A stretch of 64,000 nucleotides of DNA from a virus (IMGVR_UViG_3300029923_000009); one strand, 5' to 3'. Counted from the stretch's first letter, positions 37,225 through 41,090 are shown. A program made the numbers and translations. Notes: generated from the letters alone by a model not told the origin.

Positions 37225-37239
37225 TGCATTTAATTTAAA

Positions 37240-37271
37240 CAAATGTACCAATAAAATATGAGAAAAACAAG
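37240..37271 (-). promoter_or_regulatory. Bacteroidota-type promoter
   Basis: CTTG-N20-TACATTTG on minus strand. Confidence 0.85.
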
Positions 37272-37283
37272 TTTTTATATAAA

Positions 37284-37326
37284 AAAATAACCCAAATCAT
37301 AATATAAATTAGATTTGGGTTATTTT
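37284..37326 (-). terminator. Terminator after SSB-like gene
   Basis: Perfect 15-bp stem AAAATAACCCAAATC / GATTTGGGTTATTTT. Confidence 0.85.
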
Positions 37327-37342
37327 CATTTAAAGTTATTTT

Positions 37343-37696
37343 TTAAAATGGGAGATCATCTACTTCCGATGGTGCTTGTGTTGTGGTCTTTTGTGTTGTA
37401 TCAGGCATTTCCTGAGATCCTCCTGTGTTATTAATTTTCCACACATTTAAACTATTATATGTCTTACCATTGTAGTCGTTTGTTTTTGCGTTATATAATA
37501 CTTCAACAATAGCACCTACTGATAAAGTATCTACAATTTCTTGTTTATTTAATGCACTAAAAATAATTGAATTTGGGTGTTCACCCTCTGTTTCTTCTAC
37601 TCTGATAGTTGTATTGGACCATTCCCCATTTTTACCAGTTCCTGATTGTGTAACACCAATTTCTGTAATTTTACCCGAAAAACTTAAATTTGCCAT
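37343..37696 (-). CDS. DUF3127-like OB-fold single-stranded DNA-binding protein
   Basis: FSGKITEIG..QSGTGKNGEW...YNGKTYNSLNVWKI; acidic DDLPF tail. Confidence 0.8.
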   Translation of the reverse strand: MANLSFSGKITEIGVTQSGTGKNGEWSNTTIRVEETEGEHPNSIIFSALNKQEIVDTLSVGAIVEVLYNAKTNDYNGKTYNSLNVWKINNTGGSQEMPDTTQKTTTQAPSEVDDLPF

Positions 37697-37735: not shown

Positions 37736-37885
37736 ATTTTAGAGTTTCTTCCACCATACTCTCACACTATTACCTCCCACATCTGGTGTTACTGATCCTA
37801 ATTTTAGAGTATCTTCCACCAAATCGTTTTCCGACGACCTGTCTTCCAAGGTGTTACTGATCCTAATTTTAGAGTATCTTCCACC
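37736..37885. CRISPR. Cas-less CRISPR-like mini-array: two identical 36-nt repeats plus one 20-nt partial repeat, two 29-nt spacers
   Basis: Repeat GGTGTTACTGATCCTAATTTTAGAGTATCTTCCACC at 37785-37820 and 37850-37885; partial (19/20 match to the repeat 3' end) at 37736-37755; exact 65-nt period. The repeats are certain; CRISPR function is inferred. Confidence 0.55.
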
Positions 37886-38229
37886 CTGTCTTTTATAAAG
37901 GACTGAGTTTCATTATAATTAAGACCGAAGTTACTTCCAAAAACTGACCAAATTTTATCATAATGAACATAGAAATACCTTTTTTCTTTATTTTCTGAAT
38001 CCTGATATAATTCAAAAATAACTTCATCATTTTTATTATCTTTATAAAATACAGAATTAGGATATTCAGGTTTAATAACAATTGATAAATCGATTAAAAA
38101 ACAACGAAAGAAATCCTCCATTTCTTTATTCTTATCTATTTTGATAAAATCAATAATTATTTTATTATCATTATATTTAATTAATTTTTTATATTCATTT
38201 GGAATATTTATTTCTATTAAATTTTTCAT
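37804..38229 (-). CDS. 141-aa hypothetical protein whose C-terminus is encoded by the array
   Basis: Repeat read on minus strand gives VEDTLKLGSVTP in frame; spacer 1 gives WKTGRRKTI; stop lies inside the second repeat. Confidence 0.8.
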   Translation of the reverse strand: MKNLIEINIPNEYKKLIKYNDNKIIIDFIKIDKNKEMEDFFRCFLIDLSIVIKPEYPNSVFYKDNKNDEVIFELYQDSENKEKRYFYVHYDKIWSVFGSNFGLNYNETQSFIKDRVEDTLKLGSVTPWKTGRRKTIWWKIL

Positions 38230-39271: not shown

Positions 39272-39284
39272 ATATCAATTTAAA

Positions 39285-39316
39285 CAAATGTACTAATAAA
39301 AAGTGAGAAAAACAAG
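39285..39316 (-). promoter_or_regulatory. Bacteroidota-type promoter
   Basis: CTTG-N20-TACATTTG on minus strand. Confidence 0.85.
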
Positions 39317-39378
39317 TTTTTTTAAATAAAAATATTCAAAAAATATAAAGTTGGTCGTATTTATATTAAAATAAAACT

Positions 39379-40509: not shown

Positions 40510-41090
40510 TATTTTTTAATAAAATTCTTCTTGCGTTCAACATTTGCAAATTCGTTGGCAACCCTTAAAATTCTGGATAACATATTTCCGAACAGCTTAG
40601 TTTGTAAATCATCTTCTTTGTCAATTGATAAAATAGCTTCAAATTCAGCTTTTTCTAATTCAATACCGTATTTTTGGCATAGGTAAACAGAATATTCACC
40701 AGTTTTTATGGCTGGTAATCCATCAGAGAATTTATAAAAATTTCCTCGCTTAACTTCCCATTCAACATCGTTTACTACAAATTCTTTTGTTTTTGCAATT
40801 TGATGTAAAAAACAAGTTTTCATTAATGAATTATTTTCAATTCTATCTTCCTCTGATAATAGCGTTTCATTTATTTTTTTTGCGTAATCAGTGATTAATA
40901 AAATATGTTCAATTAAACCTCCGATATAAGCACCACCACTTTCTTCTTTTGTATGTGATGGTGCGATTTTTAATAAATTATCGAACTCATCATCTAATAC
41001 CATTTTTTCGGTATATATACCGTATTTCTTTAGCATTTTAATAAACCTAACGAAATTTACATTTATTTTTTCTTCTGTAATCTTATACAT
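40509..41090 (-). CDS. HD-domain-like protein with HD changed to HQ
   Basis: GGLIEH...CFLHQIAK. Confidence 0.55.
   Translation of the reverse strand: MYKITEEKINVNFVRFIKMLKKYGIYTEKMVLDDEFDNLLKIAPSHTKEESGGAYIGGLIEHILLITDYAKKINETLLSEEDRIENNSLMKTCFLHQIAKTKEFVVNDVEWEVKRGNFYKFSDGLPAIKTGEYSVYLCQKYGIELEKAEFEAILSIDKEDDLQTKLFGNMLSRILRVANEFANVERKKNFIKK

Follow-up and report, generated by a model that had tools for sequence, protein, structure and literature searches.

We found that the 141-aa open reading frame (ORF) studied here is a real phage gene and that, together with a repeat-spacer array that begins within its own coding sequence, it forms a unit conserved across a large phage protein family. 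We judge the chances to be about even that the locus represents a CRISPR-like array anchored in a gene, with spacers that turn over in a polarised manner and a translated tail that is incidental; no description of this gene-plus-array design was found in the literature searched. The stretch of DNA analyzed (64,000 nucleotides, referred to here as the window) belongs to a 147,145-base virus record, from an uncultured giant phage of peat, with a CheckV completeness of 41% and a G+C content of 28%. The genes surrounding the array lie on the minus strand, and the locus has the following features:

37804-38229, minus strand: ORF of 141 aa from the ORF list, without a match in Pfam or PHROG searches
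37850-37885, minus strand: repeat 1, 36 nt, exact match, in frame with the ORF and encoding VEDTLKLGSVTP
37821-37849, minus strand: spacer 1, 29 nt, GC about 45%, translated as WKTGRRKTI, no match elsewhere
37785-37820, minus strand: repeat 2, 36 nt, exact match, identical to repeat 1
37804-37806, minus strand: ORF stop codon TAA, inside repeat 2
37756-37784, minus strand: spacer 2, 29 nt, GC about 41%, containing no C, outside the translation of the annotated ORF, no match elsewhere
37736-37755, minus strand: truncated terminal repeat with 19 of the first 20 nt kept, followed by AT-rich sequence
37343-37696, minus strand: downstream neighbour, a DUF3127 / phage SSB-like gene (Pfam DUF3127, E = 1e-13; PHROG 4932, single-strand DNA-binding protein)

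The 36-nt repeat occurs in two exact copies (none in 100 shuffles) and is confined to the array within the 147-kb virus record. Both units have a period of 65, made up of a 36-nt repeat and a 29-nt spacer. The first nucleotide of the repeat is the third base of the codon preceding Val116, and spacer 1 supplies the third base of the Pro codon that ends the VEDTLKLGSVTP of repeat 1; a period of 65, one short of 66, puts the translation of repeat 2 one base out of register, as WWKIL, with the TAA formed from its Leu-Lys codons CTA AAA. The C-terminus of the ORF reads ...VEDTLKLGSVTP-WKTGRRKTI-WWKIL-stop, just as the preliminary description had it, and its further statement that unit 2 is open in the repeat's frame with a parallel ending was confirmed (VEDTLKLGSVTP-DVGGNSVRV-WWKKL-stop), this unit also being detected by the family HMM. 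The differing spacers kept Tandem Repeats Finder from reporting the array. Promoter-like sites at the array were at chance level, no terminator was found, and no TATTTATA motif was found adjoining the array. Programmed frameshifting was rejected, since no slippery sequence is common to the spacer-repeat junctions.

The expectation that homologues would likewise end in a repeat-spacer-repeat structure with variable spacers held up. In 11 of the 12 family genes for which downstream DNA was read (the window and 10 of 11 further genes), the gene end was repeat 1, and in the array-bearing loci such gene-end repeats went with unrelated 27–30-nt spacers and a truncated last copy. The nine array-bearing close homologues (L004/L019, L006, L016, L017/L018, L020, L021, L022, L023, and L066) had spacers of 28–30 nt with nothing in common between loci, and their last copy was usually truncated, as seen in L004, L016, L017, L020, and L022, and also in the more distant L186. 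Two distant members, from soil and from another metagenome, displayed an equal design with repeat sequences of their own, with periods of 63, 65, and 66 (L186/L187) and of 66 and 66 (L188). At the protein level, a second repeat was visible in 49 of 159 family representatives, a count that is a lower bound; 26 of the 159 carried their 12-residue C-terminal motif a second time in frame (exactly 22 aa apart in 25 of these 26), and in 25 of the 159 the C-terminus was the out-of-frame reading of the second repeat. Most repeats matched the others of their locus exactly (36/36 for the window, L004, L006, and L186), and repeats of different loci were 2–10 nt apart, some of the changes being protein-altering; the downstream repeats of every locus are thus copies of that locus's own gene end. 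The exact 36-nt repeat was not found in IMG/VR outside the source genome. On the soil giant-phage contigs L186 and L187 we also observed a TnpB / Cas12f1-like gene (PF07282; L186:525-2261 and L187:525-2177, minus strand) approximately 750 bases upstream of the array-bearing family member, which is probably a coincidence.

We next consider the protein itself. Twelve close homologues shared 49–69% identity, and a profile built from them retrieved 1,159 clusters at E ≤ 0.001 and 312 at E ≤ 1e-10 (clusters at 50% identity, in a database of 1.84 billion representatives). No homologues were found in 50,697 deposited phage records. The AlphaFold2 model of the 141-aa protein (mean pLDDT 77.5) displayed a beta-sheet and three helices, with a folded domain at residues 1–126, a last helix (105–119) ending in VEDTL, and a tail (residues 127–141) with pLDDT < 50 that is predicted to be disordered. 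A Foldseek search against the PDB gave no match at E ≤ 0.001, and structural neighbours in BFVD and the ESM Atlas were uncharacterised phage proteins only. As a side observation, some family members, P0013 (760 aa), P0021 (588 aa), and P0015 (346 aa), carry the whole domain, of approximately 95 residues, in 3–6 tandem copies per protein.

These data bear on the idea that gene and array are a dedicated protein-RNA or protein-DNA module, in which the small protein would bind, process or build the array of its own gene end with no host Cas. The linkage of gene and array across the whole family, even in very diverged members, argues for such a module, as do the confident fold with no known match and with only uncharacterised phage proteins as neighbours, the absence of Cas genes from the phage fragments, and the absence of a host array with the window's repeat. 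However, co-variation of repeat and protein is automatic if repeats are copied from the gene end, and so is no proof of recognition. In addition, two relatives were without an array: L003, in which the motif has diverged, and a 168-aa paralogue directly upstream of a family member (L019:1827-2333, also in L004), which closes with a 36-nt motif that is nearly identical (5 mismatches, VEETLKLGTVTP) and has no downstream repeat. No nucleic-acid-binding family or fold was recognised for the 141-aa protein (the best VIA-align Z of 4.0, to homeodomains and other three-helix DNA binders, is within noise), an integrase would be expected to have a domain of more than 100 residues, and RNA structure covariation was not found. 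We regard a dedicated module as rather unlikely.

Along with a gene-guide unit, the preliminary description had offered a silent library of C-terminal peptides; the linkage of gene and array as a conserved unit stands, while the library is not supported by the spacers. The window's subfamily has 20 distinct spacers, of 29 nt (13), 30 nt (5), or 28 nt (2). Stop codons were equally dense in the three frames of the downstream spacers (3/81, 5/84, and 6/79), no codon-position bias (GC1>GC2>GC3) was found in the spacers of this subfamily, and 12 of 17 downstream units lacked a stop in the repeat's frame, no more than chance predicts. Some first spacers reach a stop after 3–7 codons, and the translated tails across the subfamily have no common length or composition. 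In the window's subfamily, then, the spacers are not maintained as open frames. Since they show no coding signature and their stops fall evenly over the three frames, the most fitting view of the tail WKTGRRKTI-WWKIL is that of incidental read-through, a by-product and not a selected cassette. The opposite reading is that recombination between repeats exchanges tails, so that downstream units would be a selected library of swappable C-terminal cassettes. The exact repeats make deletion between them mechanically possible, unit 2 of the window has its open frame and parallel ending, and in the in-frame subfamily described below units are shuffled between related phages; yet openness at the chance rate, equal stop density, tails as short as 3–7 residues, and the predicted disorder of the window's tail all count against it, WWKxL is a mere out-of-frame reading of the repeat, and no recombinase was found among the neighbouring genes. 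We consider such cassettes quite improbable. A shufflon or C-terminal cassette system, as a known type, was rejected on the lack of a recombinase and on cassettes that are open at the chance rate only.

A pattern scan identified a sister subfamily of lake phages (L025, L027, L029, and eleven more loci) in which the array stays in frame. The first 18 nt of its 36-nt repeat are identical to those of the window's repeat. Its 84 distinct inserts were of 30 nt (81) or 27 nt (3), with no stop in 753 codons of the repeat frame, compared with 118/837 and 38/753 in the other frames, and with a coding-like composition (GC1 0.44, GC2 0.33, GC3 0.26). Each array is a single ORF consisting of a domain of approximately 90 residues followed by 8–17 units of 22 residues, and the whole array of this subfamily is coding. 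The two subfamilies share a small N-terminal domain, a last helix ending in VEDTL, inserts of approximately 30 nt, and a truncated final unit, VEDTL(K/N). They differ in that the 8–17 units of the sister subfamily are translated and stop-free, whereas the periods of the window (65 and 65) are not multiples of three, only unit 1 is translated, and the ORF stops in repeat 2. Homology between the N-terminal domains was weak (hhalign probability 24%, E = 8e-4), with the VEDTL motifs aligned, and the AlphaFold2 model obtained for one in-frame sister protein was of insufficient quality for use (pLDDT 41). The lake phages with in-frame arrays also carry, at other positions in their genomes, further members of the window's family (G402:C1:90501-91223 and G404:C1:67774-68034), two of them adjacent in G402.

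The existence of a fully in-frame subfamily, with 81 of 84 inserts at 30 nt and no stops in 753 codons, favours another explanation, namely that the window's array is the decaying remnant of a 22-residue tandem-repeat protein, with one-base deletions leaving functionless pseudo-repeats. The truncated VEDTL(K/N) unit at the end of both subfamilies fits this, as do the shortness of the arrays in the window's subfamily (2–4 units) and spacers that measure 27–30 nt and never exceed 30. Decay is nevertheless difficult to reconcile with out-of-frame repeats that, in numerous independent lineages, match the coding repeat exactly although unrelated spacers lie between them, or with several arrays having two or more non-30-nt spacers and not just one. 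Furthermore, spacer G+C was 37–40% vs. 26–28% in genes, an enrichment that argues against neutral decay in an AT-rich genome, where the opposite is predicted, and for a foreign origin of the spacers. A different spacer 1 in a sister strain with only 12% divergence at the gene end also weighs against decay, which we take to be improbable.

Turnover of the units is most apparent in the in-frame subfamily. Among ten in-frame arrays compared, gene-proximal units were mostly unique and distal units common, with some shuffling, a pattern of evolution that is known from CRISPR arrays. Polarised turnover is seen in this unit order, in the truncated last repeat, and in the different spacer 1 of the sister strain, although for the window's own subfamily the case for it is thin. 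There, a sister strain occurring alongside the window's phage in peat samples (runs X9, X10, X13, and X15) was approximately 88% identical in the 3′ part of the gene (window positions 37849-38002) and differed beyond repeat 1, i.e., at spacer 1, while L017 and L018 had the gene and spacer 1 in common and diverged past repeat 2. Assembled peat DNA contigs, which are blind to rare deletions, contained no joints across repeats.

The preliminary description had linked a dual role of the repeat to suppressed synonymous variation. This did not hold for the repeat as a whole, in which the fraction of identical codons among same-residue pairs was 0.65 vs. 0.58–0.75 in the rest of the gene, so that no general synonymous-site suppression was found; it did hold for the first 9 nt, which are invariant beyond coding. 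Val116 was encoded by GTG in 9/9 array-bearing genes (GTG makes up 14% of Val codons elsewhere), the base preceding the Val116 codon was G in 9/9 genes despite belonging to four different residues (15% elsewhere), and Leu120 was CTN in 8/8 genes (30% elsewhere). Four-fold sites farther along the repeat (Gly, Pro) were diversified, and the array-less L003 used GTA and TTA. The first 9–10 nt of the repeat are constrained beyond coding. With regard to RNA structure, Rfam searches returned nothing at the gathering threshold or at E up to 10, and folding of the repeat and of the array was no better than that of shuffles (z −0.4 to −1.9). RNAalifold and pair counting over 15 distinct repeats supported an invariant 4-bp terminal stem only, with no covariation for an internal hairpin.

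The array lies in a replication and nucleotide-metabolism block, where the SSB-like gene and a Dam methylase adjoin it. The DUF3127 / SSB-like neighbour was also present in L017 and L020, and neighbouring genes otherwise varied from locus to locus. Two minus-strand gene blocks have a 65-nt intergenic direct repeat upstream of them (37232-37296 and 39277-39341, 86% identical), and its 23-nt core (AAAAACAAGTTTTT...) occurs in three copies, the third being partial (40808-40830); this intergenic repeat may act as a promoter or regulatory element common to the blocks. The genomic setting, the regular 65–66-bp period with free spacer sequence, and the three-helix DNA binders among the weak top structural matches (Z 4.0) would fit an array of protein-binding sites in DNA, such as an iteron-like origin or partition site, that starts inside the gene of its binding protein, much as the lambda origin lies inside gene O. 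We give this very little credence: neighbours vary between loci, the structural likeness is within noise, the spacers turn over, unlike those of iteron arrays, and the site would have to encode part of its own reader protein.

Several known systems resemble parts of this architecture. In TnpB and IscB genes, the guide-RNA scaffold overlaps the 3′ end of the gene, and the window is similar in that a structured or guide-like element has its beginning within the 3′ end of a coding gene. Unlike TnpB or IscB, the 141-aa protein has no RuvC or other nuclease family, and what follows is a repeat-spacer array and not a single scaffold with its guide; a unit of this type was ruled out on the size of the protein, the absence of a Pfam or PHROG family, and the absence of a structural match. 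In type III toxin-antitoxin loci (ToxIN), tandem RNA repeats of 36 nt accompany the gene of a small protein, just as 36-nt direct repeats adjoin such a gene in the window. ToxI repeats, however, follow one another without a gap and precede the toxin gene, whereas those of the window are separated by spacers, lie downstream, and start inside the gene, and the 141-aa protein had no ToxN-like family match. Type III toxin-antitoxin systems, diversity-generating retroelements (DGRs), and integron cassettes were ruled out by architecture.

We then compared the locus with CRISPR arrays, which are generically defined by near-identical direct repeats of 23–55 nt and unique spacers of similar length. 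The window has two exact 36-nt repeats, a truncated third, and unrelated 29-nt spacers, and 11 related loci are built likewise. No match to Cas1 (PF01867) or Cas13b models was found in the 147-kb record or in three related phage fragments, the fragments searched being only 32–64% complete (41% for the window's record), and cas13b was absent beside the array from the gene lists of all loci compared. The ten largest ORFs of the record had no defence-type match save an OmpA/MotB-like domain and a ClpB-like ATPase. A search for the repeat's conserved 13-mer at 63–69-nt spacing identified no array in 185,579 prokaryote species (one genome per species; the sole match was due to chance), and 118 metagenome pattern matches were mostly unrelated gut CRISPR arrays containing the 13-mer by chance. 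Exact or small searches found no protospacers for approximately 100 spacers in the loci compared here, and none were found in four related phage fragments; for the two spacers of the window, 22–23-mers had no match in IMG/VR, and INPHARED likewise gave none.

Among 401 sampled Bacteroidota genomes, 36-nt GTTG...CAAC repeats with 29–31-nt spacers were present in three: one array adjoins cas13b (E = 4e-181), one is in the only other cas13b genome, and one adjoins cas9-cas1. The phage repeats matched the cas13b-linked repeats of the two genomes at 21–25 of 36 bases, and those of the window's subfamily matched the repeat adjoining cas13b at 23–25 of 36 (z 3.2–3.9 with ends fixed; 0–4 of 1,000 shuffles), while likeness to the II-C repeat was at chance level. 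The two genuine VI-B repeats were closer to each other (27/36) than either was to the phage repeats. The repeat termini GGTG...CACC pair with each other, where VI-B repeats have the letters GTTG...CAAC, and the lengths of 36 and 29 nt fit. Judged by sequence comparison, the VI-B likeness appears real but moderate, with an ambiguous orientation. In the two cas13b genomes, several central repeat positions vary from unit to unit over part of the array (L183:10139-11890 in G324, adjoining cas13b, and L184:276-710 in G128); this variation is above what is usual for CRISPR repeats.

Type VI-B arrays of Bacteroidota have no cas1 or cas2 of their own; in Flavobacterium columnare, their spacers are supplied in trans by the Cas1-Cas2 of a type II-C system (PMC8092290). 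Like the window, the VI-B arrays of Bacteroidota have a 36-nt repeat, 29–30-nt spacers, pairing repeat ends, and a degenerate last repeat, and as in the phage arrays the most variable units lie at one end. Unlike them, the phage arrays have no cas gene in cis or elsewhere in the phage fragments, have GGTG...CACC ends and no targets found, co-vary in their repeat with the gene across a large family, and begin inside a coding gene. The place of the usual AT-rich leader is taken by coding sequence, which counts against the CRISPR-like reading. The window also resembles viral mini-arrays and Racrs, which are Cas-less phage loci with one or two spacers between CRISPR-like repeats (PMC10651486, PMC11656645); these may supply guides to, or act as decoys for, host Cas, and the window's locus could act alike. 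Known cases have non-coding repeats identical or ≥ 90% identical to the host's and spacers that mostly match related viruses, with host-identical repeats in the known mini-arrays (PMC11656645), whereas in the window no host repeat match or target was found and the first repeat codes for protein. The closest match to a genuine CRISPR repeat was 69%, which is below the 90% host identity of viral mini-arrays. Viral solitary repeats have been found for every CRISPR type but VI (PMC10651486).

Taken with the gene-anchored CRISPR-like reading that we favour, the locus could work as follows. The last 36 coding bases of the gene are at once the first repeat of a short array, and the ribosome translates nine codons of spacer 1 and then repeat 2 out of register, as far as its TAA. 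The array would grow at its gene-proximal end through insertion of a 27–30-nt foreign segment with duplication of the 36-nt gene end, a step that may be likened to CRISPR adaptation, and recombination between repeats would lose or shuffle units. It is possible, if doubtful, that the repeat is related to that of Bacteroidota VI-B (Cas13b) systems and is served in trans by host proteins, giving guide-like or decoy RNAs; the drift of the repeat with the protein across the family argues against mimicry of one host repeat. We hold it unlikely that the system is Cas-independent and self-referential, with a widespread family building or using arrays from its own last 36 bases. Were that the case, either the mechanism by which spacers are inserted or a small partner protein guided by RNA or DNA would be new, and in one branch of the family translation would extend over the entire array as well.

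The family is large, with more than 1,000 clusters at 50% identity in giant phages of peat, soil, and lakes. Both CRISPR finders and gene callers will give a wrong description of its gene-plus-array loci. If these arrays are relatives of CRISPR, viruses would for the first time be seen to carry type VI-like repeat elements (compare the survey in PMC10651486), and the arrays would be the first known to start inside a coding gene and to evolve together with it. Otherwise, a process of another kind would repeatedly insert unique 27–30-nt segments and duplicate the last 36 bases of a gene in many phage lineages.
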